A stretch of 35,685 nucleotides of DNA from a virus (taxonomy: Duplodnaviria; Caudoviricetes). A program made the translations under genes and the position numbers. Of the stretch, positions 4,197 through 29,161 are shown piece by piece. Numbering within the stretch: the stretch's first letter is position 1; each line of letters opens with the position of its first letter. The notes under the pieces were generated by a model. The model worked only from the letters and a program-made list of their open reading frames with translations, searched no databases and was not told where the DNA came from. Location: positions 1 to 35,685 of IMG/VR virus record IMGVR_UViG_3300048579_000427; one strand, given 5' to 3'.

Positions 4197-5858
4197 TTAA
4201 AATTCTAATGTTGTTGAAATTGAAACCGCATTGCCATTGACCGTAATTGCACCGGTTATATCTTTTATACTGCCATAGTCTTCAGTAAGCCCATATTCAA
4301 GTGAAATTAAGGCATCCTGATTCTTTGTGTCAATAGTCGCCGCTACATTAAATGCGCTATCAGAAGTTCTTGTAAATGATAAGTTTGATACAGTAGGTGT
4401 GATAATAGCCGCTTCAATAGTTAATTGCTTTATTCCGATCACCTCGCTTCCGTCGCTGGCCGTTGCTGTGATCGTTACCGATCCGGCCGCAATCAACGTC
4501 ACTAACCCGGTTGAACTTACAGTTGCTTTCGATGTGTCGGAACTTGTCCATGTCACAGCCTTGTTAGTTGCGTTTGCAGGTAGTACTGCTGCACTAAGCT
4601 GTATTGTATTACCTTGAACACCAACCGAATCACCTAAAATTGAAATAGATGAGACGGCTATGTTTGATGCAGTTATTGTCAATGATTTAGTGCCTGTTGC
4701 AGCTGAACCATCGCTGGCCGTAGCGGTAATGGTAACAGGACCTTCAGCAATCAGCGTGACAAGTCCTGAAGAATTTACCGTCGCCTTGCTCGTATCCGAA
4801 CTTGTCCATACTACTGTTTTATTTGTCGCATTCGAGGGCGTAATTAATGCAGTTAATTGAATTGTATTTCCTGCGACGCCGGTGCTGTCTCCTGTGATTG
4901 AAATTGTGGTGACGGGTATTTGTTCTGCCGGGGCTGTATCAATATTCAATTGCACAATAATTGCCGAAGGATTTCCGGTATATACTGTACCCCAGCTAAT
5001 TGATAGCTCGTCGCCGACCGCAACTTTATTGTTCCCAGTTGCAGGTGTTTCAATTGTATTAGTTGTTGCTGAAATTGCGGAAATGCCTGTTATTTCAGTT
5101 CCGTTTTTTAGAAATGAAATTTCAAGTGTGCCATCATCAAGTTTTAAAACACACGAAGTTATTGTAAAAGCATAGAGCGCTTTCAATAAAAGAACATGGC
5201 TATCTGCCGTTCCCGCCTCAATGTCTCTGTATTCCGCGCTAATCCATGTAGGTTGTGTTTCAGCATTTGGAATTTTATAAAGTTGAATCCAATCTGTGTC
5301 GCCAACATATCGCTGACATAGATACCCGGAAACGACAGCCATTTGTATTTCACGCCCGTCAGTTCCATCATCATAATCCACTCCTTTTTGAGGAGTAATG
5401 CCGTGAAGAGAATCCAGCCACTGAATCTCAGTCCCAGCGTACCCATGCGCAACTGCTAGCTCATAAGGGGTTTTACCATTATTCCCCGGTGTTCCAATTC
5501 CTTTAAAACTCCCATATTTATCAAAACATCCTTCCAAAGTCCAGGTATCTCTTACTGATAGAGTTACTGAAGCAATTATTACGTAAACGCCATTGCTGTT
5601 GATTCTTATAGTTGCAGTAACAGCAACTGAATCGGCATTAAAAAAATTCAACGATTTGATAATTCTCCGAACCCCTTCATCAGGCCCCGGCACAGCAACA
5701 ACGGCGGTTGTTCCATCTGTTTTTATATGACTTTCGCCTTCAGCAAATACAGTTCCGTTATCTGCCCAAGCTGCAACTACATCACAATCGGCAGTTACTT
5801 TTGCTGATTGCAATACAACTTCAATACTTTGATTTGTTGTAAGAATGATTGTTTTCAT
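4197..5858 (-). CDS. Tail fibre/baseplate-associated protein with two Big_2 Ig-like domains
   Basis: 553 aa; GKTPYELAVAHGYAGTEIQWLDSL motif typical of phage tail proteins; two Big_2 repeats. Confidence 0.7.
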   Translation of the reverse strand: MKTIILTTNQSIEVVLQSAKVTADCDVVAAWADNGTVFAEGESHIKTDGTTAVVAVPGPDEGVRRIIKSLNFFNADSVAVTATIRINSNGVYVIIASVTLSVRDTWTLEGCFDKYGSFKGIGTPGNNGKTPYELAVAHGYAGTEIQWLDSLHGITPQKGVDYDDGTDGREIQMAVVSGYLCQRYVGDTDWIQLYKIPNAETQPTWISAEYRDIEAGTADSHVLLLKALYAFTITSCVLKLDDGTLEISFLKNGTEITGISAISATTNTIETPATGNNKVAVGDELSISWGTVYTGNPSAIIVQLNIDTAPAEQIPVTTISITGDSTGVAGNTIQLTALITPSNATNKTVVWTSSDTSKATVNSSGLVTLIAEGPVTITATASDGSAATGTKSLTITASNIAVSSISILGDSVGVQGNTIQLSAAVLPANATNKAVTWTSSDTSKATVSSTGLVTLIAAGSVTITATASDGSEVIGIKQLTIEAAIITPTVSNLSFTRTSDSAFNVAATIDTKNQDALISLEYGLTEDYGSIKDITGAITVNGNAVSISTTLEF

Positions 5859-5860
5859 GC

Positions 5861-7984
5861 TTAAGAGATAAACCAGGCGTATGCCTGTTGTGGTGAATTT
5901 ATTGCTGCTTTCTTTAATTGTATGCGCGCAAAGCCATCCTCTTCGGTCGAATCAACATCTGTTGCTTTTAATTCAAAGTCACTATCGCTTAAATAAGCAG
6001 GCGAGCTTGTTAATGCACCTGCGTCATCAATTAACTGAACTGTTTTTGTTGTGTTAACGGTTTTTGCTGATTTTTCAGTTGCATTTTTAAGCGGATCGAT
6101 AACAATTAACGAGGTTGTATTTTCAACAATCAATAAATCAATGTTATTGTCAACTTGTTCAACGTAGTTGCCTTCACACGCCTGCGTATCATCATCATAC
6201 GTCAAAGCCGTTTCGACAAATATTTTTCCGGGTATATTGACATCTTCAACAACAATAATATCAACAGGAATTATGTCGCACAATTTTGCTTTAAAAACGT
6301 AACGCGGGTTTATTGACTGTGCAGCCAGATTACGAGCTATAAATTCAGAAAATGAATATAAAGTGGTAGCCCCCGGATAACCCCAGGCGTGGGTTGTTTC
6401 ACCATTTGCGCGCTGTATTCCGCCGTTAAATATAATTTTGTTGTTAACTATTTCAGGATAATCACCTATTTTGAGCGTAATTTCGTCGGGTACTGCATTG
6501 TTATTTAAATCATTAATTACTTTAATTTCCCGCTTTGTTGGATATTCTTCGGCCTGTTCGTCGAGGATATTCATTTTCACACCTGTAAAACACGATCCTG
6601 AAATCTGCGAGCGATCGGTATAAGGCACAAATAAATCAATACGCAAATCGCCTGAAATTGGTAACCCTGCTACACTGGCTTTAAATGTTTCAAAATTATC
6701 AGCTATTTTTTGAAATGGAATTGCCGTAACTTTATCATATGTATTATAGTACTTCCCGGTTTTTCCTGAAGCATGCGAAACTTCAAGATGTGATTTTAGT
6801 GTTAGCATTAAATCAGCATCATTAAATGGAAAATTATCCGTAAAATTTTTCCAGATAAATTCTGCTGAAGTTTCGTCAGTCCAGGGCTTGTAACGCAAAT
6901 AATAGTTTGCATTCTCATTATGTAGCGTAATTCGCATAAACATGTAGCACGAATATTTTGTGCCCATTAAAGCAAATTTAGTTTCAAAAGTTACCTGCGA
7001 GGTTGTTTGATTGACGGGCAATGTTTTACGGATAAATTTCGTTAACTGTCCATATCCGCCGTCATTAAATCGGCCTGGGTATTGCTGCCCGTACAAGTAA
7101 ACAAATTTGTCACCATCATCGTTTAAAGACTGTTGAACTGGCGTTATATTTATATTTTCCCAGGTAGCAAATTTTGCAAGTTCAGCGTTATAATCAACAA
7201 ACGAACCGTTTGAAAGCACATTTGCTTTGTACCCAAAATCCTGTGTTAGACGTAATTGTTTAATCGCAGCAATTACGTCTAAATTAGCTTCGCCTTCCTG
7301 CCAAAAATCGGTATAAGTAATCGGTTTTTGATTGATTTTTTTGTTTGATACTACGTGCCAGGCTCCGCCGCGTTGGTAAATCCTGCAATTTACAGCAACT
7401 TGCTGAAGGACATCAAAACAATTCATTTCTGCAAAATCAATTGTATTGATCAAATGACTTTTGTAATCTGTTGAAGTTTCATCTAAAAAATTGATATTAA
7501 AATTAATCGATAATCCAAGACCGGTTAATTCTAACAAATCAGTAATAATTGATTCAATTGTTCTAAATTCATCAATTGCATCAAAATCAATATTTTTCAA
7601 AAATCCTAAATTGTCATAAGCTGTAAACTGGCAAGGGTAAGGCGTAGCAGTCAGCGGTTCATTCCAGGTGTCCGGTTCAATAAACCATTTACCAAAAACA
7701 ACACCGCCCTTTTTAATTTCAACCAAATGCTTTTTAGCATCAGCCGAAAATAAATTCAAAAATTCGAAATCAATTTCGGCATCGAGGTAAACGGTAACCG
7801 AAGAGCCATAAATGCAAGGCGGCAAAGTGTCGTTGCTGCCCTGGTCGCCCCATTCGGCTTTAAATGCCGCAGGAGCATAACGAACGTCAGCAGTGCCGGT
7901 ATAGTCGCGCCGATAAATATTGATTTGCGTCAACACTTCATTGCGATCTTTATATTCAAGTCGATATCTTAAACCGTAGGCCAT
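5861..7984 (-). CDS. Putative distal tail/baseplate hub protein
   Basis: 707 aa directly after the tape measure gene; N-terminus MAYGLRYRLEYKD...QINIYRRDYTG resembles Bacteroidota siphophage post-TMP proteins. Confidence 0.55.
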   Translation of the reverse strand: MAYGLRYRLEYKDRNEVLTQINIYRRDYTGTADVRYAPAAFKAEWGDQGSNDTLPPCIYGSSVTVYLDAEIDFEFLNLFSADAKKHLVEIKKGGVVFGKWFIEPDTWNEPLTATPYPCQFTAYDNLGFLKNIDFDAIDEFRTIESIITDLLELTGLGLSINFNINFLDETSTDYKSHLINTIDFAEMNCFDVLQQVAVNCRIYQRGGAWHVVSNKKINQKPITYTDFWQEGEANLDVIAAIKQLRLTQDFGYKANVLSNGSFVDYNAELAKFATWENINITPVQQSLNDDGDKFVYLYGQQYPGRFNDGGYGQLTKFIRKTLPVNQTTSQVTFETKFALMGTKYSCYMFMRITLHNENANYYLRYKPWTDETSAEFIWKNFTDNFPFNDADLMLTLKSHLEVSHASGKTGKYYNTYDKVTAIPFQKIADNFETFKASVAGLPISGDLRIDLFVPYTDRSQISGSCFTGVKMNILDEQAEEYPTKREIKVINDLNNNAVPDEITLKIGDYPEIVNNKIIFNGGIQRANGETTHAWGYPGATTLYSFSEFIARNLAAQSINPRYVFKAKLCDIIPVDIIVVEDVNIPGKIFVETALTYDDDTQACEGNYVEQVDNNIDLLIVENTTSLIVIDPLKNATEKSAKTVNTTKTVQLIDDAGALTSSPAYLSDSDFELKATDVDSTEEDGFARIQLKKAAINSPQQAYAWFIS

Positions 7985-10509: not shown

Positions 10510-10868
10510 TATTTCCCCGGTTCCGGCAACTGAGCTTGTCGAAGTTCCGGGGCTTGCAGGTTTTTTGGTTCGTCAGTATTTTGAGTGGATTCTTCTGATA
10601 ACCTGATCTCTGAAAGTCTCAAAAAAACATCTTCAACATCGGGCTCCGAGTTGTCAATAAATTCCTCAAAACTGTCGGAAATTGGTGTACTTGCCCGTTT
10701 AGCGCAATCAACAAGGTTATAATAGATCAATGCCAGTGTGGCGGTTGTTTTGCCCTCTAACACGTCCTGAGTAGTAAAACCAGCATTCTCGAAATTTACC
10801 CGACCTCTGTTTGTTTTGTAAAAAGGAAAGGTCTGTCCTTTGTATTGTAAAGTTGTACGTGGCTCCAT
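10509..10868 (-). CDS. Tail assembly chaperone (gpG-like); start re-assigned to ATG 10868
   Basis: Follows tail tube; the track's longer N-terminus overlaps the tube gene and is translated heptamer repeats. Confidence 0.75.
   Translation of the reverse strand: MEPRTTLQYKGQTFPFYKTNRGRVNFENAGFTTQDVLEGKTTATLALIYYNLVDCAKRASTPISDSFEEFIDNSEPDVEDVFLRLSEIRLSEESTQNTDEPKNLQAPELRQAQLPEPGK
10560..10566 (-). promoter_or_regulatory. Programmed -1 frameshift heptamer A_AAA_AAC with downstream GC stem
   Basis: CCA AAA AAC in frame; CCCCGG...CCGGGG stem starts 7 nt downstream; -1 frame has no stop up to ATG 10509. Confidence 0.8.
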
Positions 10869-10869
10869 T

Positions 10870-10970
10870 TGAATGATAAATGATGAATGATAAATGATAA
10901 ATTGTTGTTGCGGGTTACAAGTTGCAGGTTGCGGGAAAACCCGTAACTCGCAACTCGTAACTCGTAACAA
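10870..10970. repeat. Short heptamer tandem repeats ((A/G)AATGAT; AACTCG(C/T) with inverted counterpart)
   Basis: gaatgataaatgatgaatgataaatgataaa; gttacaagttgcaggttgcgg...ccgtaactcgcaactcgtaactcgtaac. Confidence 0.7.
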
Positions 10971-10971
10971 A

Positions 10972-11460
10972 TTAAGGCGCTGCAACAGTTTCAACAGTTA
11001 CGGCCAGCGAATTTTCGAAAGTAGCCGTCATCGTAGAGTCTTCGCCTTTTTTGTCGTTGCGACTTACTTTTGTAATAATGAAATTGCCTTTTTCGTATTT
11101 GTCGCCAGCCTGTTCAGCTACTTCGGCAGCTCCGGCAGTTACATCAGTAGCCGGACGGCCCGAGTATTTCAACATCACTTCGGTTCCTGCAAGTTGCTTT
11201 TCGCGAAGCGTAAAATAGTTAAAACCCGTACCGGGATAAGTAGCCAATGCCGAAACATTGATTGTAGTTGTTTGCTCACCTGCACGTTTTTGAGCCGATT
11301 TCCCGGTATCCTTTGTTTTCCGTGTGCGCAGTTCGGTCGAGTGCTCTATCGAGCATTCAGTGCAATGAAATGCGGGCGTCCAGGTCGGTGTTTGCGTGTT
11401 TGAGGTGTTGAGATATACCAGGATATCGCCACCGTCGATAATTCCAGTGTTTGCTGCCAT
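10972..11460 (-). CDS. Major tail tube protein (TP901-1-like)
   Basis: 162 aa; IIDGGDILVY...TECSIEHSTELRTRKTKD...GNFIITKVSRN...STMTATFE; precedes chaperones and TMP. Confidence 0.8.
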   Translation of the reverse strand: MAANTGIIDGGDILVYLNTSNTQTPTWTPAFHCTECSIEHSTELRTRKTKDTGKSAQKRAGEQTTTINVSALATYPGTGFNYFTLREKQLAGTEVMLKYSGRPATDVTAGAAEVAEQAGDKYEKGNFIITKVSRNDKKGEDSTMTATFENSLAVTVETVAAP

Positions 11461-14475: not shown

Positions 14476-14596
14476 GAGGCCTCCCCCAACCCCCTCCAAA
14501 AGAGGGGGCTTTAAGAAAAGCCGTTTGTTTTTAACTATCTTTTACTCAATGCACCTTCTTTACCCCTCCCCTTCGGGGAGGGCTGGGGTGGGGCTT
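14476..14596. repeat. Inverted pair of GC-rich REP-like palindromes (CCCCTCC...GAGGGG family)
   Basis: 14476-14511 and 14563-14596; same family as 19847-19878, 21527-21660, 22103-22206. Confidence 0.75.
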
Positions 14597-14597
14597 C

Positions 14598-14939
14598 TTA
14601 ATCGATTTGAATAAATGCGCCAGCTTCAACGAAATTGGTGCCGTCGTAGAAGAATGAAACCACATTGGTTTTTCCAGCTACTCCCGTAATGGTAGCACCC
14701 TGCATTTTAGTTCCAAAAATGGTAGTTTCGGTAGCGGCTGTTTTGCTTTTGACAAACAAGCGGGCACCTGCGCTTACCGATGCAGCTACAGTGAGGTTAA
14801 GCGTACGGTTGCCCGTAGCTGGAACGGTCACACCATCAACGATAGTCATATCGTTTACAATGTCGATTGCCTGCGCACCGGTTGCGGTGAGCTGTACAGT
14901 TGTTGCGGGGCCAAACGGCCATTTAATAATTTCAGCCAT
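14598..14939 (-). CDS. Small beta-rich structural protein (head decoration candidate)
   Basis: 113 aa, Thr/Ala/Val/Gly-rich, between protease and capsid genes. Confidence 0.5.
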   Translation of the reverse strand: MAEIIKWPFGPATTVQLTATGAQAIDIVNDMTIVDGVTVPATGNRTLNLTVAASVSAGARLFVKSKTAATETTIFGTKMQGATITGVAGKTNVVSFFYDGTNFVEAGAFIQID

Positions 14940-16212: not shown

Positions 16213-16692
16213 ATGGCAGTTACCAAAAACTCAGCAATAGAAGTTTTATTTAAAGATGGGTGGGATCAAAAGGATATTGCCCGCATTCTCAAATTATCGG
16301 AAGTAACCGTGTCGCGCTATGCGACTGAGCGCGGACTTCGTAAAAAACGAGCTATGCACTCGCTTGCAAGGCAAACGTCAGAGGAAAACTCTTTGATTGC
16401 GCTGGAACATCAATCGACTATTATTCGCATGATGGCTGAAAAGCTAAAAGGTGCTTTAAGCGAAGAGCCCGACATGGACGAGCTTAAAGCTGCTTTGCTG
16501 CCTAAAGGTGAGATTGACGCCTTGCAAAAGTTGTTTACTACTATTAAAGGTAAGGAACTCGAATGGTCTGCAGTAGTGAAGATTATTCGTGAATTTACTT
16601 CTTATTTAAAAGAAGTTGCGCCGGAAAAAGCTCAGGGCATAGTTGATCATGCCGATGATTACATCAACGAAAAGCGGAGGGTTATGTCATGA
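16213..16692 (+). CDS. Putative terminase small subunit (N-terminal HTH)
   Basis: QKDIARILKLSEVTVSRY HTH; overlaps large terminase start (ATGA). Confidence 0.7.
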   Translation: MAVTKNSAIEVLFKDGWDQKDIARILKLSEVTVSRYATERGLRKKRAMHSLARQTSEENSLIALEHQSTIIRMMAEKLKGALSEEPDMDELKAALLPKGEIDALQKLFTTIKGKELEWSAVVKIIREFTSYLKEVAPEKAQGIVDHADDYINEKRRVMS

Positions 16693-18293
16693 CCGGCATT
16701 ATGCGCTTAAAGGAAAAGCAGGAATACGAGGCATGGCTCAAAGAGAAAGCAGCTATTAAACGCCTTAGCCCTGAAAGCCGCGAAAACGACGAGGCGAAAA
16801 AAAAACGTATTACCGACCTGCTGAAACCAGGTCATGAGCCGCAATTTGCCCGGTATTATCTTGCCCATCTAATTGATTCAGAATTTGGGTATTTCCAGAA
16901 ACGCGATATGAAAAAGGTTAGTGAAGAATCTGACCTGATGGCATTAATGGAATATCCCCGTGAACACGCGAAAAGCACCATTTTTGGCACTGTAATGCCC
17001 ATGATCCTTTTAGCACGGACAATTTACTTACATACAAATGATTTTACAGGTTGTGTTTTAGGATCGGCGACTGAACCGAAAGCCGATAAATTGTTAGCCG
17101 ATTTGCAAAGTGAATTGATGTTTAATAAGCGTTACATCGATGATTTTGGCGAACATTACGGATCAGGTAAGTGGACTGAAGGCTTTTTTGTTTCTACCCA
17201 AGGGTTTGGGTTTTGGGCATTTGGCCGGGGGCAAAGTCCTCGCGGCATTAAAGAGGCTGCATTTCGCCCAAACTATGGGCTTATCGATGATATTGACGAT
17301 AAGAAGCTTGTCAAAAATGAAGAATTAGTTGACGAGGTTCTTGAATGGATGCTGGAGGACTTTTATGGATGTTTGCCGCTGAAGGGTAGCCGGTTTATCA
17401 TGATTGGTAACCGTATTCACCGCAAATCAGTACTAGCTAAATTTGCGGGCGATATCGATGAAGATGACCCAATTCGTGAAGGTTTATACCACTCCAAAGT
17501 TTATGCGCTTGAAAACCCAAAGACGCATAAAATGGACTTATCAGAAAAAGGCGTTCCAGCTTGGAAGGAACGATATACCTACGAAATGCTGTGGACGAAA
17601 ATAAACCGAATGGGTCGCCGTAGCGGGTTAAAAGAATACTTCCATCAGCACATTATTTTAGGTAAGGTTTTCAAAGAGGAACATTTGCCCTGGGAAGATA
17701 TGTTACCACTAAACGAGTACGATTGCCTGATTACCTATAACGATCCATCATATAAAAACTCAATGACAAGCGATTGCAAAGCCATTGGATTGATCGGTAA
17801 AAAAGGAAGGTATTTCGACATTATCGACGTTTTCGACCGCCAGTGTTCAACTGCTGAAATGGTACGCGGCCATTACGCCATAGCCTCACAGGTACCATCC
17901 TATTTGGATTGCAGACACTATATGGAAGCCAATTTTATCCAGGATTTAATGCTCGAAGAATACTTTAGATATGGCGAGCAAAATCCGCCAATCCTCCGCA
18001 TCCGGGGCGATAAGCGCAAAAAACCGGACAAGGAAGTTCGTATTGAAAACCTGACTCCGCTTACTGAACAATGCCATATCCGTTTCAACCGTAAGCTAAA
18101 GCATAAACCCGATATGATTACCCTGCGTGATCAGTTTCTGGGGTTCCCGGACAAACGAATTAAAGACGATGGGCCTGATATGGTGGAGGGTGGTATATTC
18201 ATTCTCGATAAGAAGAAAGGCAAGCCAGGCAAGGGTGACCGATCAGTCAAAACCGGCCAGTATGATCGTAATAACGAACGTTCAATTTATTAA
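16689..18293 (+). CDS. Terminase large subunit (Mu gp28-like)
   Basis: PREHAKST Walker A variant, LIDDIDD Walker B, YNDPS and DDGPD nuclease motifs. Confidence 0.9.
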   Translation: MTGIMRLKEKQEYEAWLKEKAAIKRLSPESRENDEAKKKRITDLLKPGHEPQFARYYLAHLIDSEFGYFQKRDMKKVSEESDLMALMEYPREHAKSTIFGTVMPMILLARTIYLHTNDFTGCVLGSATEPKADKLLADLQSELMFNKRYIDDFGEHYGSGKWTEGFFVSTQGFGFWAFGRGQSPRGIKEAAFRPNYGLIDDIDDKKLVKNEELVDEVLEWMLEDFYGCLPLKGSRFIMIGNRIHRKSVLAKFAGDIDEDDPIREGLYHSKVYALENPKTHKMDLSEKGVPAWKERYTYEMLWTKINRMGRRSGLKEYFHQHIILGKVFKEEHLPWEDMLPLNEYDCLITYNDPSYKNSMTSDCKAIGLIGKKGRYFDIIDVFDRQCSTAEMVRGHYAIASQVPSYLDCRHYMEANFIQDLMLEEYFRYGEQNPPILRIRGDKRKKPDKEVRIENLTPLTEQCHIRFNRKLKHKPDMITLRDQFLGFPDKRIKDDGPDMVEGGIFILDKKKGKPGKGDRSVKTGQYDRNNERSIY

Positions 18294-18303
18294 TTGATAT
18301 ACC

Positions 18304-18726
18304 ATGCAATTCTTAACTGAAAACGATTTTAAAGGCATCATCGGTGCCAACACACTTACACAATTGCGGGGCGTTGGCGATGCTGATTTAAATATTGCCG
18401 AAAGCCTGTCGATATCGGAGCTTGATCCGCTTCGGGCTAAGTTCAATATATCGGTTGAGCTGACTAAGTCAGATACTGAACGTAACCCGGTGATAATTCG
18501 CCTAATGGTGCATATTACTGCCTACTATCTGTATAATACGGTTGAAGATGCAGACATTCCCGAACGCATTACCGAAAACTATAAACAGCAGGTGCGCGAC
18601 ATCGAAAAGTTTGCAAACGGGTCAAAAGCTTGCTCACTGACTCCACTGATTGATGAAACAACCCAGGCGCCTAAAAGCAACTACCGTTTTGGTGGAGATG
18701 CTCCACGTAATAATGACATTTTTTAA
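18304..18726 (+). CDS. Mu gp36-like (DUF1320) head-tail adaptor
   Basis: 140 aa; MQFLTENDF start, RNPVIIRLMVHITAYYLY, PERITENY; synteny. Confidence 0.75.
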   Translation: MQFLTENDFKGIIGANTLTQLRGVGDADLNIAESLSISELDPLRAKFNISVELTKSDTERNPVIIRLMVHITAYYLYNTVEDADIPERITENYKQQVRDIEKFANGSKACSLTPLIDETTQAPKSNYRFGGDAPRNNDIF

Positions 18727-18743
18727 TTTTAAATACACATACC

Positions 18744-19940
18744 ATGAAATTTTTTTGGCAAAAAAACATACAAAATGCGGCAACGCCACCAGCTACTCAA
18801 ACGCAAAATAAAAAACGAGGTAGCCGAAATTCCGACAATGTTAATTTGCCGCAACCCGAACGGGTTCAAATGGAATTAAGCAATTTAAGGCAAAACGTTG
18901 AATTTGCTAAAGATGTGTATAATCCAATTTGGTACGATTTGTATCGCATGTTCGAAAATACATTGACCGATTCGGAGGTAATTACCCAACGTAAGATTGC
19001 CATAAACAAGATAAAGGCGGAAAAATTCATCATTAGTAAAAATGGAGTTGACTCACCCGAATTAAGCGCTTTGTTTCAAAAGCCCTGGTTTATGCAGTTT
19101 CACGAATGTTTTGTCGATTCTGAATTATGGGGTTATCGCCCGGTTGAATTTGGGCAATTTGATGCTGAGAATCAGTTTATCGACTGCCGTTTATTCCCGG
19201 TTTTCAACATTTACCCGCACAATAAAAACATTATTCTAAATTACACAGATCGCGCTGGTATTCCATATGCCAATGACGATCCGGCCAAAGGTGAGTTGGT
19301 TAATCCATACGAGCTTTTTATACTCGAATTGGGCGATACCAAAAGCCTGGGATTGATTGAGCCTTTGACACGCGAGGTAATTATTAAGGCATTTGCAACT
19401 CGCGATTGGAACGAACATTCGGAGAAATGGGGACAACCACGCGAAATAATACAAACAGACGCAGAGGGTCCAGACCTTGACACAATTGAACGTGGAGCCC
19501 GTAACTTTGCGCGAAACGGTTATCAAATCGTTGGCTTAGACGATAAAGTCACGACGGTTGAAGCCTCGAACAATGGCACTGGCTATTTGATTTACGACAA
19601 AAATATCGACAGGCGCGATCAAAACATCGCCAAAATCATCAATGGCCAATATGGCACCGGCGCTGAAAAAGCGTTTGTTGGCACTGCCCAGGTTGCCGAA
19701 AATATACTTAACGATTTTCATCATTCAAGGCTTCGCGACGAGCAAAACGTAATCAATTATGAGTTAATTCCTTTCCTTATTTTCCACGGTTATCCGTTGC
19801 AAGGCTGCACAGGTCGTTTTCCCGTATTGGACGAAAAAACACAGGAAGCCCCCTCTAACTCCCCCGACGGGGGAGAACCAGCAACCCCCGGCAAAGCACA
19901 AAATAACGGTAAAAAAAAAAGGATGGTAGCGCCCTGGTAG
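18744..19940 (+). CDS. Portal protein (Mu gp29/DUF935-like)
   Basis: DWNEHSEKWGQP, IAKIINGQ, INYELIPFL motifs; lies between gp36-like and MuF. Confidence 0.85.
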   Translation: MKFFWQKNIQNAATPPATQTQNKKRGSRNSDNVNLPQPERVQMELSNLRQNVEFAKDVYNPIWYDLYRMFENTLTDSEVITQRKIAINKIKAEKFIISKNGVDSPELSALFQKPWFMQFHECFVDSELWGYRPVEFGQFDAENQFIDCRLFPVFNIYPHNKNIILNYTDRAGIPYANDDPAKGELVNPYELFILELGDTKSLGLIEPLTREVIIKAFATRDWNEHSEKWGQPREIIQTDAEGPDLDTIERGARNFARNGYQIVGLDDKVTTVEASNNGTGYLIYDKNIDRRDQNIAKIINGQYGTGAEKAFVGTAQVAENILNDFHHSRLRDEQNVINYELIPFLIFHGYPLQGCTGRFPVLDEKTQEAPSNSPDGGEPATPGKAQNNGKKKRMVAPW

Positions 19941-19976
19941 AGACAAGGCATGCCTTATCTCATGCATTGTCTCTAC
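19937..19976. repeat. GTAG-type REP-like hairpin at portal/MuF junction
   Basis: GTAGAGACAA-G-GCATG...CATGC-A-TTGTCTCTAC (10+5 bp stem). Confidence 0.75.
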
Positions 19977-21001
19977 GCCGCATAGTGGCAAAATCGGAGT
20001 TATTCGATCAGGATGCCTTTGAAAAATCGTTTGCCGTATATTCGGAGCAGGTGCGCATGGGCGTTGGCGTTAAGAGCCTGAAAGATTTAAGCTACACCGA
20101 TCCGCGATTTGAACTATACAACAACCTTCAGGCCGATGCTGCCCGCTTTGCTGCTTTCCGGGAAGCGCAGAAACAACGCGAGCTCAATGATGCTAAAACA
20201 GACCTGGATAAAGCTAAAATTGAAAAGCGGTACAAAGAATACCAGCTTACCGAAAAACAGGCCATTTTTGCCAATTCAGCCGCCGCTGAGCAGTGGATCG
20301 GGTTTCAAGAGAATGCCGATATTTACCCAAATGTTACCTTTCATACTGCGGGCGACTCTGATGTTCGCCCATCGCACCGGGCACTGGAAGGCTTAACCGT
20401 TTCGCTGAACGATCCGTTCTTGAAAACACACTCAACTCCACTCGATTTTGGTTGTAGGTGCCAATGGATTCAAACTGATGAACCGGTGAACCATAAGGAT
20501 GAGCAGTATAAAGGCTATAAAAATACGCCGGTGGGCAAAGGCTTCGATTTTAATCCAGGCATCGATCAAACGCTATTTTCTGATAATGCCGGTTATTATA
20601 CCAATGCCACGAATGCCGATGCCAGGCAATTGTATGAGCAGGCTACAAAATTCACAATAAGCAAATCACGCGACTTTGGATATGACAACATTAATAAGGC
20701 CGTTAAAAACAAAATTGGTGAAATAACAATGAATTCGACTACCAGGCGCGAGTGGATCAATCAACCGCACATTGATTATGCCGCTAAAAATTCATTGATC
20801 GAAAATCTTGATTTCCTTAAAAATCTGAAGTTTTCAAAAGCACCGGCCAAAGAAAACCCAATGGTAAAACAAAACTGGATCGCTAAAATTTTGCTGATGA
20901 ATAAAGAGTCGGTTGTAATTGTTCGCGAGTACATCGACGGTAGGAAAGTGCTTTATTCAATTTCGGATAAGCCCGAAAAATTCAGGGAGTATTTAAAATA
21001 A
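19967..21001 (+). CDS. MuF (gp30/SPP1 gp7-like) minor head protein with extra C-terminal domain; true start uncertain
   Basis: TAGDSDVRPSH...PLDFGCRC MuF motifs; about 110-aa C-terminal extension ending VLYSISDK; TTG start only. Confidence 0.85.
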   Translation: MSLRRIVAKSELFDQDAFEKSFAVYSEQVRMGVGVKSLKDLSYTDPRFELYNNLQADAARFAAFREAQKQRELNDAKTDLDKAKIEKRYKEYQLTEKQAIFANSAAAEQWIGFQENADIYPNVTFHTAGDSDVRPSHRALEGLTVSLNDPFLKTHSTPLDFGCRCQWIQTDEPVNHKDEQYKGYKNTPVGKGFDFNPGIDQTLFSDNAGYYTNATNADARQLYEQATKFTISKSRDFGYDNINKAVKNKIGEITMNSTTRREWINQPHIDYAAKNSLIENLDFLKNLKFSKAPAKENPMVKQNWIAKILLMNKESVVIVREYIDGRKVLYSISDKPEKFREYLK

Positions 21002-21083
21002 AAATGGTCAGCGCCATCACTAAGGAAACAGTCCAAAGCTGAACGCCAACCATTTTCACGACAAATATAAACAAAATAATTAA

Positions 21084-21524
21084 ATGAATTCGGACTTTAT
21101 TAAAAAACTCGACCAGATACGGCAGCAATTGCCCGCTATTTTTAAACGGCTTCCAGGCATTGCCAAGGTTGAAGGATTACGGTTTATTGCAGATAATTTC
21201 GAACATGAAGGGTTCGAAGAAAAGAAAGGCAGTTATAAAGCCTGGCCAAAAAAGAAAACCAAAGGGGCAACGAAAAAAACGCTGGTGGGCGAAAAACGCG
21301 GTGCATCGTTAAAACGGTCGTGGCAGCAAGATTCGACTGCCGGGGCTGATTATACGGCTTTCCAAAGCCAATTACCCTACGCCGGTGTGCACAATGACGG
21401 ATTGAAAGCCGGGCGACCTCCTGGCTTTATGATGCCGGAAAGGAAAATGATTGGCGACAGTGAGGCCCTGTTTGGAAGGATTGAGGGGAAGATGGATAGG
21501 ATGATGGATGAAGCAATAAAGTAA
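21084..21524 (+). CDS. Virion morphogenesis protein (Mu gpG-like)
   Basis: NFEHEGF...W...PYAGVHNDG...MPERKMIGDS. Confidence 0.8.
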   Translation: MNSDFIKKLDQIRQQLPAIFKRLPGIAKVEGLRFIADNFEHEGFEEKKGSYKAWPKKKTKGATKKTLVGEKRGASLKRSWQQDSTAGADYTAFQSQLPYAGVHNDGLKAGRPPGFMMPERKMIGDSEALFGRIEGKMDRMMDEAIK

Positions 21525-21526
21525 GA

Positions 21527-21660
21527 AGCTTCCCCCCTGCCCCTCCGAAGGAGGGGTGATAAGAACGCATTGAATATGATTATTGATTAATTAAAAATAT
21601 AACCAAAGAAACTGGAATCCCTCGCCAGTCCCTCCCCTCCGGGGAGGTTAGGAGGGGCCT
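21527..21660. repeat. Inverted pair of GC-rich REP-like palindromes
   Basis: cccctccgaaggagggg (21540-21556) and cctcccctccggggaggttaggaggggc (21631-21658). Confidence 0.75.
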
Positions 21661-21662
21661 AA

Positions 21663-22115
21663 ATGTTATATCCAATTTACACGGCGCTTAAATCTCATTT
21701 AAATGAGGCCGACGAAAACAAGGTAATTAAAGGAATTGAGTGGTACAACGTGCAATACGAAGGAAGTATTGCCACAACTCCACGGCTGTTTGTTGAGTTT
21801 CCTGAACCGCTAAATTTTGGTGATTTAGGAAAAGAAGCCGATAAACGGGCGCCTGTTAAAATTCGCCTGCATGTAGTTACCCAGGCCTTAGCCGGTGCCG
21901 ATGGCGCTATTGATGACCAGGTGGCAGCCGACCACGAAAAAACTGCGCTGTGGGTAAAAAACAAGTTGGATAACTTCTTGCCCCCTTTGACAAGCTCAGG
22001 GGCCAAGCCATGTTTAACACTTCATTTTACAGCCTGGCAGCATTTCCACAAGTATAAGGGCTGGATGGTGACGTTTGTGGAGTTTACGGCAAAGAAAACA
22101 ACAGCCCCCTCCTAA
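21663..22115 (+). CDS. Putative tail terminator/neck protein (Mu gp37-like)
   Basis: IEWYNVQY...PRLFVEF...KIRLHVV; follows gpG-like gene. Confidence 0.6.
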   Translation: MLYPIYTALKSHLNEADENKVIKGIEWYNVQYEGSIATTPRLFVEFPEPLNFGDLGKEADKRAPVKIRLHVVTQALAGADGAIDDQVAADHEKTALWVKNKLDNFLPPLTSSGAKPCLTLHFTAWQHFHKYKGWMVTFVEFTAKKTTAPS

Positions 22116-22206
22116 CCTCCCCCAAGTGGGGAGGAACAAAAAAACCAGGTCGCATTGACCTGGCTTTTTTTAAGCCCTCCCTTTTGGGGAGGGTTTGGGT
22201 GGGGCT
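22103..22206. repeat. Inverted pair of REP-like palindromes bracketing a terminator
   Basis: 22103-22135 and 22172-22206. Confidence 0.75.
22138..22171. terminator. Bidirectional intrinsic terminator between convergent operons
   Basis: A7-CCAGGTC-gcatt-GACCTGG-c-T7. Confidence 0.8.
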
Positions 22207-22208
22207 TC

Positions 22209-22433
22209 TCACAAATCCTTAATCTCATCAAACATAGCTTTTGCCTGTTTGTGGTCTGGTAGCATTTCCTTCAGTAGGTTAAAAAGCGCGTGGTAGTTAT
22301 CGCTGGTGTTTAGCTCACGGTCGTTGCATTGCAGGCAATCGATAATATCGTTCATCGTTTCAACGTAATCTTCGGCAGGATGGCACCCGGTTTTAACCTC
22401 AATGGCAAACCCTTTGGCAGTTTTAGTTACCAT
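22209..22433 (-). CDS. Hypothetical protein coupled to antirepressor
   Basis: 74 aa, overlaps the upstream gene's end. Confidence 0.6.
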   Translation of the reverse strand: MVTKTAKGFAIEVKTGCHPAEDYVETMNDIIDCLQCNDRELNTSDNYHALFNLLKEMLPDHKQAKAMFDEIKDL

Positions 22434-23883: not shown

Positions 23884-23919
23884 GGGTTCAAAGATAAATT
23901 GTTAATTGTTAATTGTCAA

Positions 23920-24507
23920 TTATAAATTGTTGCGGGTTACGGGTTTCGAGTTGCGCGACTCCAGCTTATCAAGCAGCCGGGTGGCATATTTTACCGTATA
24001 ATTACCGCCTTTGTCGTTTATAGCTTCATTTTGGCTCAATTCAGCCGCTGTTTTGCAACGCTCTTCAAAATAGGTAGCAAACCAGGTCATTACCTTCGGC
24101 ACATCGAGCGATTCGTAAAACGAGCCGTAATCGCCGTTAATGGCCGCATTGAACACAAAATTGATGTCGGCAACTGTCAATACTGCATACTTCGAAACCA
24201 CACGCTCGGCAATTGCATCTATTTTGGTTGCGTTCAGTGGCCGGGCAATATTCACAAGTTCCGTTAATTGCACCAAATAAGCTTTTATCAATGCTTCCAC
24301 TTTTTCGGGGCCATTGGCCGCTTTGAGTTTTCCCAGCGTAGGGTAATCGCCGGCCACCTTCAGCACATCAGTAACCGAACGCACAGCCTTTAGCTCTTTG
24401 TTCAGCACACTAGGTAAGCAAGTCGCGAGCGATCTGGGCGCGATAGTCGGCACTGATGCCGCTTGCTGCGTTGCCGGAGTTGCGTTTGATTGAGGTAGTG
24501 ATTTCAT
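23920..24507 (-). CDS. Conserved phage protein (DUF6633-like)
   Basis: LTVADINFVFNAAINGDYGSFYESLD...WFATYFEER. Confidence 0.55.
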   Translation of the reverse strand: MKSLPQSNATPATQQAASVPTIAPRSLATCLPSVLNKELKAVRSVTDVLKVAGDYPTLGKLKAANGPEKVEALIKAYLVQLTELVNIARPLNATKIDAIAERVVSKYAVLTVADINFVFNAAINGDYGSFYESLDVPKVMTWFATYFEERCKTAAELSQNEAINDKGGNYTVKYATRLLDKLESRNSKPVTRNNL

Positions 24508-26124: not shown

Positions 26125-26436
26125 TTAAGTGAATAAGTATCTATCGTTTTCTTCAATAATTGTCGTTTTGAAAGGGAATCCATTTTCAGGAACCTTTTGA
26201 ATGACTTCGATCAGTCCGGTTGACGAGGTAAAAACCACGTGTTTGCGGTTGTCAAACGATATTTGCAGGTGCAGGCATTTACCGGTGCCTTTCTCCTGAA
26301 ATGATTTTACTTTTGAGTCTTCCAACTTGAAATGATGTACAACGATTTCACGGTTTAGAATTCGCGACATCTTGATTTTATCACCTTCAAAAGCCTGGCT
26401 CTCGATTTTAATGTTGAATTGACTAAATGAATTCAT
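26125..26436 (-). CDS. RT-coupled hypothetical protein, candidate DGR accessory factor
   Basis: 103 aa, ATGA overlap with RT stop; beta-strand-rich pattern, unlike helical Avd. Confidence 0.7.
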   Translation of the reverse strand: MNSFSQFNIKIESQAFEGDKIKMSRILNREIVVHHFKLEDSKVKSFQEKGTGKCLHLQISFDNRKHVVFTSSTGLIEVIQKVPENGFPFKTTIIEENDRYLFT

Positions 26437-27383
26437 GCAAGTAATTTTTTCATAAGGTTTTTGCTGTTACAATGCGAAGCCCAGCCGTTGTATGAAGCAA
26501 TTGATTGGGGATTGCGCCGCCGCTTTAACATGCGGGCAAAGCGCTGTTTTATGCTTTTGCGTAAGAGCACGTGCGTGTGTCTGAAGATATATCCAACAAA
26601 GTCGATCCCGCGCGATTCGACCGGAAAAATTTGATAATTCTGTTTAACGGTGAGCTTCAGGTTATCGTGCAGGTATGTTCTGATATCAGACAGCAGTTGA
26701 TGTAAATAGGTCTTATCAGAGGCAAGTATAACCAGGTCATCGGCATATCGGAAATAATACCTTAGTTTTCGGTCTTCCTTGATCCAATGATCAAAGTATG
26801 CCAGGTAGAAATTTGCAAAGTATTGACTCAGATAGTTGCCAATGGGTAAACCTTCGGTACTGTCAATAATCTCATCGAGCAACCAAAGCAAATCATTGTC
26901 TTTAAATTTTCTTCTGAGCAAACCTTTTAAAACATCATGGTCAACAGATGGATAAAACTTTTTAACATCGAGCTTCAGGCAGTATTGCGTATTTTCAACG
27001 TCGTTTAAAGCCCGTTTAACTGCTTTTGCAGCGGCATGTATGCCACGGCCTTTGATGCAACTGTACGTGTTGGCGGTGAATGTTGAGACGAATATTGGTT
27101 CCAGAATATTCATAACGGCGTGATGGGTGATGCGGTCGGGGAAGTATGGCAGTCGGAAGATCAGGCGCTCTTTAGGTTCAAACACCGTGAATGTGGTGTA
27201 TTCGGACGTGCGGTAAGTTTTGTTTTTCAGCATTGAATGCAGCTCATGTATGTTTGCCTCGCGGTTGCGGTCATGGGCGATCACTCCGGGCTGTTTTGAT
27301 TTACCTTTGCGGGCAATTTCGTCAGCAAGCTGAAGGTTTTCAATGCTGTAAATTTGTTCGTATAGGTTATTTATCCTTTTCAT
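26433..27383 (-). CDS. DGR reverse transcriptase
   Basis: 316 aa; PKER.I...PDRITHHA, LKLDVKKFYPSV, GLPIGNYLSQYFAN, YFRYADD, GIDFVGY; no maturase or endonuclease domain. Confidence 0.97.
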   Translation of the reverse strand: MKRINNLYEQIYSIENLQLADEIARKGKSKQPGVIAHDRNREANIHELHSMLKNKTYRTSEYTTFTVFEPKERLIFRLPYFPDRITHHAVMNILEPIFVSTFTANTYSCIKGRGIHAAAKAVKRALNDVENTQYCLKLDVKKFYPSVDHDVLKGLLRRKFKDNDLLWLLDEIIDSTEGLPIGNYLSQYFANFYLAYFDHWIKEDRKLRYYFRYADDLVILASDKTYLHQLLSDIRTYLHDNLKLTVKQNYQIFPVESRGIDFVGYIFRHTHVLLRKSIKQRFARMLKRRRNPQSIASYNGWASHCNSKNLMKKLLA

Positions 27384-27500
27384 TTTCCTGATCTGTTTTG
27401 TGCCTTTGCTTTTTAATGAGTCGCTTTCCCCGTAAGTACCAACGCCCCGTTAAACACTCGTTATTTTTTGCCGTGTTGGCAAGGTTTACACTGCAGAATA

Positions 27501-27581
27501 GCATAGGTGAGAGCTGACATTCGTATTCGTGTTATCGTAGTTGTAATTCGAATTCGAAAAACTGAAACCGGAAGACAGAAC
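27501..27581 (-). repeat. DGR template repeat (TR), 81 nt, 21 adenines
   Basis: GTTCTGTCTTCCGGTTTCAGTTTTTCGAATTCGAATTACAACTACGATAACACGAATACGAATGTCAGCTCTCACCTATGC; AAY-rich, intergenic, upstream of RT. Confidence 0.96.
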
Positions 27582-27616
27582 TAGCAGCATCGCAGTGTAC
27601 AACCCTTTTTATCTTA

Positions 27617-28030
27617 TTATGAATACAGCAAAAAATCGCGGTATTCAGCCTCAAATTGCTCAGTTATGTATAGGGCCTTCTCACGTGTATCAGTGCAAAG
27701 GCGAGAGCCGACATCCGTAGACGCGTTAACGTAGCCGTAATGCGAAAGCGAAAAACCGAAACCGGAAGACAGAACCTCAAACCAGGGATAGTACTTGTAT
27801 TGATTCCAGTTGCTCCAGTCGGGTTTCCACCCGTTATTTATTGCTTTATATATAATCAAAAGCTTGTAGTAATTAACAACGTGCTTTCTCATGTCTTCAG
27901 GAAGCATTGATACATCAGGAAGTTGTTGCGGATCAATACTCTCTTTTGCGCAGGCGTCTTCAAAAGTTTTGATTGTTCTAAAATCAAACTCAATTACATT
28001 TTTTTCTTCGTTTGTTGAATTTGTTGACAT
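27617..28030 (-). CDS. DGR target protein 1 (137 aa)
   Basis: Contains VR1 (VLSSGFGFSLSHYGYVNASTDVGSRLC); paralogue of 28035-28496. Confidence 0.93.
   Translation of the reverse strand: MSTNSTNEEKNVIEFDFRTIKTFEDACAKESIDPQQLPDVSMLPEDMRKHVVNYYKLLIIYKAINNGWKPDWSNWNQYKYYPWFEVLSSGFGFSLSHYGYVNASTDVGSRLCTDTREKALYITEQFEAEYRDFLLYS
27695..27775 (-). repeat. DGR variable repeat VR1
   Basis: 81 nt ungapped vs TR, 14 mismatches, all at TR adenines. Confidence 0.96.
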
Positions 28031-28034
28031 AATC

Positions 28035-28496
28035 TTAATTGTTTAGTGTTAAAAATTGTTTGTAAATATCAATGAATTGCGTTGCTGCGTAGTTGCTTTT
28101 AGCCTCAGACTCGAAGCAAAGGCGAGAGCCGACACTCGTATGCGTGAGATCGTAGGCGTAATTCGAATTCGAAAAACCGAAACCGGAAGACAGATTGAAC
28201 CATGGCCACCACTTTTGCTGGCTTTTATTGTCCCAATCCGGAACCCAGTTTTGATTAATTGCTTTTGCCACTATTTTCATCTTTTTGTAGGCAATCTCAT
28301 CTGGAGTATCATTTTCGGTGAATAAGCTTTTAGGATCATTAATGCCAAGCTCCTCGCAGGCATCTTCAAAAGTTTTGATGTCCTTAAAATGTCGTTTTTC
28401 GAATGCTTTTGCGCCAAATTCGGCAGTAAGTTCTTTCTGAAACCATGCGGGCGACGTTGGATAAATCGCCTTTGCTTTTTCAAGTGTCATTTCCAT
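28035..28496 (-). CDS. DGR target protein 2 (153 aa)
   Basis: Contains VR2 (LSSGFGFSNSNYAYDLTHTSVGSRLC); shares IKTFEDAC, KAIN..W.PDW, PWF with target 1. Confidence 0.93.
   Translation of the reverse strand: MEMTLEKAKAIYPTSPAWFQKELTAEFGAKAFEKRHFKDIKTFEDACEELGINDPKSLFTENDTPDEIAYKKMKIVAKAINQNWVPDWDNKSQQKWWPWFNLSSGFGFSNSNYAYDLTHTSVGSRLCFESEAKSNYAATQFIDIYKQFLTLNN
28116..28194 (-). repeat. DGR variable repeat VR2
   Basis: 79 nt ungapped vs TR, 10 mismatches, all at TR adenines. Confidence 0.96.
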
Positions 28497-28939: not shown

Positions 28940-29161
28940 GGTTTGCCCCGGCCAATCATTCCGGGGCTCTCTCAACCAATTATCAATCGGTAGAAGCTTC
29001 TTTGGGCTTTGTAGTGTAAAAACTTGTTTGATCTCCACAACACTTTTTAGCCTTTTTACCACTTCCACATTTACACAGTGCATTTCTATCTTGTTTGCGT
29101 GTTACAATTGGCGATCCGTCGCCAAGATGTATTGTTACCATTTGTCTTTCCCTTACCATAA

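Follow-up and report, generated by a model that had tools for sequence, protein, structure and literature searches.

A two-target diversity-generating retroelement in a Mu-like phage

The viral contig IMGVR_UViG_3300048579_000427, analyzed here over its whole length of 35,685 bases and called the window, carries on its minus strand a compact cassette that is, with near certainty, a diversity-generating retroelement (DGR). In minus-strand order it comprises a long target gene, a short target gene, a template repeat (TR), a reverse transcriptase (RT) and a 103-amino-acid accessory gene (Table 1). Upstream on the same strand lie genes for a transposase, a MuB-like protein, an ATPase and a DUF3164 protein, with the head genes on the opposite strand. 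The transposase, the MuB-like protein and the Mu portal, F and gp36 proteins encoded in the window bear out the Mu-like context described in an initial annotation made from the sequence alone.

Table 1. Features of the DGR cassette (positions in the window)
Feature	Position	Strand	Description
Accessory gene	26125..26436	-	103 aa, pI 8.8, start overlapping the RT stop; predicted OB-fold, SSB-like
DGR reverse transcriptase	26433..27383	-	316 aa, intact, IGNYLSQ and YADD motifs; PF00078, phrog_1423
Spacer RNA, TR to RT	27396..27486	-	Hairpin 27469-27481; conserved GGTA...GAAA and GCAAAGGC blocks
3' arm of TR-enclosing stem	27483..27494	-	Covariation
Template repeat (TR)	27501..27581	-	81 nt, 21 adenines (17 free to vary), non-coding
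5' arm of 12-bp RNA stem around TR	27592..27604	-	Covariation
Proximal (short) target	27617..28030	-	137 aa, pI 4.9, without N-terminal extension; phrog_11581
VR of short target	27695..27775	-	14 of 14 mismatches at TR adenines
Distal (long) target	28035..28496	-	153 aa, pI 5.4, N-terminal helical extension; phrog_11581
VR of long target	28116..28194	-	Residues 102-127; 10 of 10 mismatches at TR adenines

The repeat finder returned a single three-copy family (starts 27500, 27694 and 28115), made up of the TR and one variable repeat (VR) in each target. All 24 mismatches between the TR and the two VRs fall on TR adenines of the minus strand, and the chance of every mismatch lying on an A is 9e-11 for the short-target VR and 2e-7 for the long-target VR, the latter being 79 nt long and compared with TR positions 27501-27579. 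The VRs differ from each other at 12 positions, again all at TR adenines, and the RT is uninterrupted with its YADD motif in place, so that the element stands as first described, with an intact RT, an 81-nt TR and two VRs. Its reach was put too high at 4^21 sequences per target: the 21 adenines are present, but at four of them (27563, 27515, 27508 and 27504) both VRs show one and the same substitution. Three of these adenines belong to codons that do not vary across the family (those for Gly in GxF and for Gly and Arg in GSRL), and the change at the fourth is silent, so that 17 adenines, spread over 11 codons, remain free and allow approximately 1.2e10 proteins per target. Six AAY codons lie in frame in the VR, and no stop occurs among the reachable codons. 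No third VR was found inside the window, but its left end (position 1) cuts through an Ig-domain gene, so that this phage may have a tail VR beyond it. Nor was a GC-rich hairpin detected after the VRs, where DNA folding reaches only -0.6 and -1.6 kcal/mol in the window and, family-wide, averages only about 1 kcal/mol below shuffled sequences with no consensus stem.

To place the cassette in a family, we took from RT-seeded scans the best 80 loci among 563 viral ones and the best 80 among 174 in genomes, giving 160 loci that are partly redundant (one phage may recur in several samples) and that include 101 distinct RTs among loci of at least 10 kb; a scan seeded with the accessory profile (best 80 of 341) added 76 loci, many of them on the same contigs, and a viral scan seeded with a single target returned three. 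In 258 distinct TR/VR pairs, whose segment ends were set by a score penalizing non-A mismatches, there are 3,815 mismatches at 5,485 TR adenines against 91 at 14,788 other bases; TR/VR pairs with adenine bias also accompany related RTs. The TR is preceded by two tandem targets in 124 of the 160 loci, by three in 11, by one in 10 (five at a contig end) and by none in 15, five of which lie at a contig end and three others of which, on inspection, proved to be tail-type DGRs. One single-target locus (L063, 6004-6224) has a TR stripped of most adenines, resembling a dead or overwritten template.

The genomes with the cassette (best 80 of 174) are nearly all Bacteroidota, with relatives present in Prolixibacteraceae, Flavobacteria, Sphingobacteria and Chitinophagaceae, and many loci are prophages in host chromosomes. 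The RTs closest to that of the window (83-84%) come from Prolixibacteraceae genomes in the same set, which may be taken as a hint, and no more, to the host of this phage. The window RT is also 74% identical to a reference RT of Wu and colleagues from Pedobacter arcticus A12 (our locus L175).

Turnover of variable repeats among near-identical relatives

Most pairs of near-identical cassettes are identical throughout. In three sets the differences are confined, wholly or nearly so, to VR adenines: L043 and L176 differ at 21 of 40 VR adenines and 0 of 2,067 other places, L022 and L023 at 9 of 45 and 0 of 2,036, and L079 and L191 at 21 of 38 versus 28 of 2,066. Such differences indicate that the cassette was recently active in these relatives. 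Between L022 and L023 nine adenines differ, and in L021 the proximal VR is unchanged, a pattern showing that the two targets can be rewritten separately and upholding the earlier claim of independent diversification. The expected A-specific variation was thus found in three sets of relatives, and for the phage of the window itself there is only an identical copy of the cassette (L001). The four sequencing runs that we compared hold contigs of relatives at approximately 85-95% identity and are uninformative on the VR diversity of the window phage; no RNA run was among the matches listed in the sequencing-run search, and shares were only small.

A predicted OB-fold partner of the RT and a structured template RNA

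Two parts of the cassette were missed by the initial annotation: the gene that follows the RT, which lay within its range, and the structured RNA around the TR. The accessory gene is found in 152 of the 160 RT-seeded loci; in four of the remaining eight the contig ends, and in the other four (L069, L226, L234 and L238) the absence is real at the sensitivity of the search. Conversely, among the 76 loci added by the accessory profile, an RT lies directly upstream in 74 and a contig end intervenes in the other two. The accessory matches 904 clusters at 50% identity, and all 21 longer homologues are fusions to the C-terminus of an RT (for example L066, L223 and L235). In ANMV-1 and vir525, both archaeal viruses, a homologue comes immediately after the RT (E 8e-19 and 2e-21); in the Hankyphage-like BT-TP2 one forms the RT C-terminus (E 1e-4), and the RT of LoVEphage likewise ends in an accessory-like domain (E 1e-4). 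ANMV-1, vir525 and BT-TP2 have adjacent targets of the tail type; the accessory therefore belongs to the RT rather than to the targets. Very probably it is part of the DGR machinery.

Its model is a five-stranded barrel, for which OB-fold rows dominate the structure search, with SSB, PriB, RPA and other OB domains at the top (Z 3.8-6.4), and the atlas lead points to the phi29 SSB (44% of the top cluster). We found no avd gene between target and TR or between TR and RT, the flanking genes have no Pfam match, and the sole conserved small gene of the cassette is predicted to be beta-rich rather than helical. From predicted fold, linkage and RT fusions, we propose that the accessory is likely a substitute for Avd, partnering the RT and probably holding single-stranded template or cDNA, in the role that Avd fills elsewhere; its pI of 8.8 and the RT fusions are indirect pointers to a protein that would bind single-stranded nucleic acid. 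CH1, MSL and HRDC were considered as identities for this gene and rejected on sizes and pI, there being no Pfam match. Neither Pfam (with single sequences or alignments) nor NCBIfam has a family for the accessory or for either target.

Two loci that lack the accessory carry other candidates. In L234 a gp2.5-like SSB gene (10528-11085) lies 1.6 kb after the RT and might stand in for it. In L238 an open reading frame (ORF) between target and TR (6411-6746) aligns weakly over its full length with the accessory profile (E 0.08); judged by eye, it may be the "tenuous" PAG1 that Wu 2018 (PMC5758913) notes in three DGRs, in which case PAG1 is possibly a distant form of the accessory. How Avd-less DGRs work is left open in that paper, and Paul 2015 and Benler 2018, on the archaeal-virus and Hankyphage-like DGRs, call a small ORF Avd-like from size and pI only.

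The TR is enclosed by a 12-bp RNA stem that is paired in 97.7% of cells across 44 sequences, with changes on both sides in 7 of the 12 pairs, a count of the kind that kinship inflates. Taken singly, the TR-RNA of the window folds no better than shuffled sequences (z 1.15), the case for the stem being one of covariation. The spacer between TR and RT gives a weak full-length match to the Rfam family RT-17 (27.9 bits, below the cut-off of 40.4; E 0.028); it works like RT-17, we suggest, while falling short of Rfam membership. The TR would be transcribed within this closed stem and, together with the RT-17-like spacer, may provide the RT with both template and primer. Promoter and terminator scans remained at chance level.

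Two small targets kept as long and short forms

The two targets are tandem paralogues of 137 and 153 residues, as first described, with 47% identity over their shared part, 26 (long) and 25 (short) residues after the SRLC motif and no hydrophobic stretch in either. Across the family a hydrophobic 19-mer above 1.6 occurs in only 3 of 257 targets, and the targets are acidic (median pI approximately 5.4). The N-terminal extension is present in 103 of 135 distal and 8 of 145 proximal targets and was not found outside the target family among the loci examined. When the VR is masked, the nearest neighbor of a proximal target is another proximal one in 115 of 126 cases and that of a distal target another distal one in 104 of 120, with a median identity of 36% between targets of one locus. 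The preservation of position among nearest neighbors and the distal extension together indicate that the long and short forms have been kept together through divergence.

The suggestion that the targets act as a pair therefore stands insofar as the two subtypes are conserved, and fails as an obligate arrangement, since single, triple, remote and internally duplicated targets occur, including two-domain targets with one VR per domain (L233, 6939-7784; L229, 6553-7389). VR amino-acid spectra are similar between long and short targets, giving no sign that the two have different ligands. One may go further and picture an antibody-like adaptive counter-immune system of Bacteroidota phages. In it, long and short chains, both built on a helical, non-lectin scaffold and each bearing a separate hypervariable loop, would pair inside the cell as combinatorial binders of host immunity proteins, while an OB domain of the SSB type, either free or as part of the RT, would replace Avd throughout the avd-less lineage; we regard this fuller picture as improbable.

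The AlphaFold model of the long target, built from an alignment of 110 sequences, has a pLDDT of 86.9, six or more helices and no strand of at least three residues; its sole weak part is the VR, a low-confidence loop at residues 101-120. The minimal C-type-lectin fold suggested earlier found no structural counterpart: in Foldseek against the PDB and in a wide structure search no C-type lectin was among the matches listed (best Z 4.2) and no fold match emerged at all, which is not proof of a new fold, and a PDB sequence search gave nothing under E 0.1. Matches in BFVD are uncharacterized phage proteins only, several of them from crAss-like phages, two of which (cr111_1 and ctDAq1) have two such look-alikes per genome. 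The target scaffold may be a wider phage family older than its link with DGRs. The last 25 columns of the target alignment, which cover the VR peptide, align with the end of a 468-residue tail-type target, and in LoVEphage one TR serves both a tail-fiber VR and a small target. We read these two observations as one VR peptide that may be displayed on two scaffolds, of which the small one would be either a new fold or a stripped lectin.

Genomic context and the probable role of the targets

The cassette lies 16-18 kb from the major tail and tape-measure genes and 22-27 kb from the Ig-domain genes, in correction of the 20 kb or so first given for tail genes; a neck gene is found 6 kb away, on the other strand. 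Among 110 loci of at least 10 kb, the flanks contain Mu A/B genes in 40, replication or methylase clusters in 69 and either in 97. For the remaining 13, the 43 neighbors obtained from nine loci are mostly replication, recombination and integrase genes, the exceptions being one tail gene 4 kb away on the opposite strand and one terminase directly upstream (L221), and in some of the 13 the other strand carries head genes of the Mu type. Throughout the Mu-type loci the cassette runs opposite to the head and neck genes; in a second phage type it has repressor/primase on one side and the head module on the other. Six longer relatives (whole contig or approximately 48 kb on each side; two of them 93-98% complete) each have exactly two VRs, and none of them yielded a tail VR.

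Position, size and homology thus agree with the original contrast between these targets and tail adhesins, and the targets are very probably non-structural. We propose that this is an Avd-less DGR of a Mu-like Bacteroidota phage, whose two small, non-secreted targets are likely intracellular variable-loop binders that would block host defense proteins, a reading to which we give a probability of roughly 0.4. Its foundation is adenine-specific rewriting, seen in the TR/VR pattern, the intact RT, more than 100 distinct relatives and the VR-only change in three sets. Judging by gene position, the targets would be made early, with the transposase or replication genes, and remain cytoplasmic, and in each the helical scaffold is predicted to support a loop that displays about 11 variable residues; the two forms perhaps act as a pair. 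For the ligand, an immunity protein of the host that changes fast is a guess, if the best of several; granted that the targets are non-structural, counter-defense has about an even chance.

Several observations weigh against this reading. The cassette lies on the same strand as, and 1.5-7.4 kb before, the head protease in 30 of the 31 loci that have one, a position allowing late co-transcription, and in L221 it follows a terminase gene inside the late region. Of the methyltransferase neighbors usual in early regions, the commonest occurs in just 21 of 145 loci, and gene neighbors in any case tell location, not ligand. The sole other copy of the exact window cassette is identical to it, VR change being seen in relatives only. 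An obligate pair is contradicted by five single-target and 11 triple-target loci and by a lone copy in LoVEphage. As for the accessory, L226 and L234 lack it and still show clean A-specific VRs, the structural matches of its model reach moderate scores at best (Z 6.4, rmsd 3.1, 69 aligned), and Foldseek finds none under E 0.001. Finally, the parts of Roux 2021 (PMC8144416) available to us allow such targets to be unrecognized structural proteins.

That last possibility, of small adhesins or ejected proteins encoded outside the structural module, would fit the 30 loci upstream of head genes and the one inside a late region, the LoVEphage TR that writes both a tail-fiber VR and a small target, and the alignment of the VR peptide with the end of a tail-type target. 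It sits badly with the strand opposite to the head genes in Mu-type loci, with targets interleaved with DNA polymerase genes (L234 and L226), with the lack of any attachment domain and with the 1.6% of cluster PC_00007 predicted as structural in the same source, and we consider it quite improbable.

With primase, helicase, polymerase or Mu transposition genes as neighbors, the targets could instead engage essential machinery of the host (RNA polymerase, replisome or protease) that varies among Bacteroidota, adapting replication after a host switch. The spread of relatives over four bacterial groups would suit such host-range adaptors, as would the frequent change of backbone: on the 101-tip RT tree the Mu/non-Mu label, assigned from incomplete flanks, changes 21 times versus a shuffled mean of 30, which indicates that the cassette has moved between backbones. 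Yet VRs that turn over between phages with 2 kb of otherwise identical sequence are hard to square with housekeeping proteins, which change slowly, and a host switch would need a variable tail too, when no tail VR was found in the six relatives; on balance this explanation is unlikely.

The many prophage loci, and the ties of DGRs to bacterial conflict systems in the accessible parts of PMC7159879 and PMC10907252, raise the further idea of prophage-encoded sensors or inhibitors made in the lysogen or early, which would bind proteins of superinfecting phages. The chances of this are slim: no fused effector domain was seen (only 2 of 7,994 scored homologues are longer, at 295-297 residues, with no Pfam domain, which is weak evidence), there is no conserved effector neighbor, and the targets sit in an operon pointing away from the repressor-like gene. 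In Mu-type phages such an operon is normally silent in lysogens.

Frequent backbone changes and occasional decayed copies (L063, L039 and L069) would also be expected of a selfish or neutral cassette that spreads as a mobile block with targets of no important role. Against this stand the scaffold residues conserved in 110 aligned targets, the persistence of the long and short subtypes and the fact that DGR retrohoming does not duplicate the element itself, which together make it highly improbable.

Comparison with described DGRs

The type of DGR found here is catalogued and unstudied, and the surprise that the initial annotation attached to a non-tail target was overstated, because the tandem-target architecture, the class of non-structural targets and the idea of counter-defense are already in print, at least in the parts of the sources we could consult. 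Galbibacter sp. ck-I2-15 in row 120 of Wu 2018 (Lineage 3, A1, CLec3, target code f4, order TG-TG-TR-RT) is likewise avd-less with tandem small targets (156 and 123 residues), and Pedobacter arcticus A12, row 121, is also Lineage 3; for both rows the stem-loop after the VR is listed as "no", as in the window. The targets of the Pedobacter element match the family profile of the window at E 4e-47 and 1e-39. The table gives it one target, whereas we find two VRs, and, as far as it could be seen, it records no accessory, gives no indication of a phage and assigns the VR to CLec3 though it "aligns poorly."

In the available text of Roux 2021, PC_00007 ("Phage_other," DGR clade 1) holds approximately 1,300 targets classed as non-structural or unknown, including those of Pedobacter and Galbibacter, with the VR at 0.70-0.77 of the length; like the window family it is viral, with FCB hosts and soil, freshwater and anoxic habitats. 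It is there a catalogue entry, gene context, pairing, fold and accessory not being covered in what was available, and all VRs are expected to be C-type-lectin variants. By its small target family, with the VR at about 0.7-0.8 of the length, and its avd-less RT lineage, the window element belongs to the type of Wu Lineage 3 and Roux PC_00007.

Second DGR targets have been read as counter-defense by Benler 2021 (PMC8008677), who proposed this role for a Quimbyvirus target, and by Dahlman 2025 (PMC12629997), as far as the accessible text goes. A homologue of our targets in LoVEphage (QVQ57199; E 1e-23; VR mismatches 19 of 19 at A) has DUF2400, methyltransferase and RtcB genes as neighbors, on the strand opposite to the structural genes; that it corresponds to ORF 80/84 of Benler rests on matching neighbors rather than direct comparison. 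The Quimbyvirus/LoVEphage second target is a small homologue of those in the window and, like them, has its VR internal and is encoded in a non-structural region; it differs as a single, remote side target of a tail-fiber DGR with a TR of 113-118 nt, whereas the window type has a TR of about 80 nt and a tandem pair beside it, the tail target being gone in the relatives checked. A related side observation comes from the end of the BT-TP2 record (L243, 7893-8279), where an unannotated target-family gene, split across the record ends, lies beside repressor genes.

With the model element of phage BPP-1 (mtd-avd-TR-brt), as described in the sources available in part, the window shares adenine-specific TR-to-VR rewriting, an RT downstream of the TR and fixed TR/VR differences at the 3' end. 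BPP-1 has Avd and a single virion target, whose VR is C-terminal and lies in a C-type-lectin fold, and its IMH is followed by a GC-rich inverted repeat. The window element, in contrast, is without avd, both of its VRs are internal with no conserved hairpin after them, an OB-fold gene is present, and the model of the target is helical.

What we did not find described in the literature searched, which included neither subscription papers nor bioRxiv supplements, is the persistent long/short target pair and an OB-fold gene of 103 residues after the RT; the helical target model without a lectin match, a prediction, likewise appears not to be described there. None of the three occurs in the parts available of PMC6199706, PMC4372165, PMC8143477, PMC12135933, PMC7159879, PMC10743442 and bioRxiv 2024.11.15.621889.

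Other features of the window

Just upstream of the cassette, a 58-residue ORF (28983-29159, minus strand) with a SEC-C-like zinc motif has NCBIfam matches below cut-off (best E 1.6e-7), and a related stretch occurs in contigs of several sequencing runs. A terminase-portal-neck operon (16213-22115, plus strand) runs opposite to both the early and the capsid/tail operons, a layout seen in approximately 40 related loci. Two tail-region genes (1-1266 and 4197-5858, minus strand) contain repeated Big_2 Ig domains, and within the first, positions 1-141 and 259-399 are 97% identical in DNA, marking a recent internal duplication. GC-rich palindromic repeats lie at operon boundaries, as two direct copies 84% alike and one inverted pair (14556-14598, 22167-22209, 21634-21660 and 22103-22129), and two intergenic runs of 7-nt units (10872-10936 and 23897-23958), 13 kb apart, are 72-81% alike.

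Conclusions

Here, we provide evidence for a genuine DGR of a catalogued type that holds two small targets away from the tail, for which a role against host defense is our guess. The family comprises approximately 1,300 catalogued targets without assigned function, and here no target outside the family was found. As Pedobacter arcticus A12 and other hosts can be cultured, a functional test could be made that would not be confounded by tail variation. The predicted OB-fold partner is a concrete candidate for how Avd-less DGRs work, also in the DGRs of archaeal viruses and gut phages, and RT and OB domain joined in one chain would make a compact tool for mutagenesis. If the helical model holds, these targets would depart from the C-type-lectin folds that DGR targets are taken to use.

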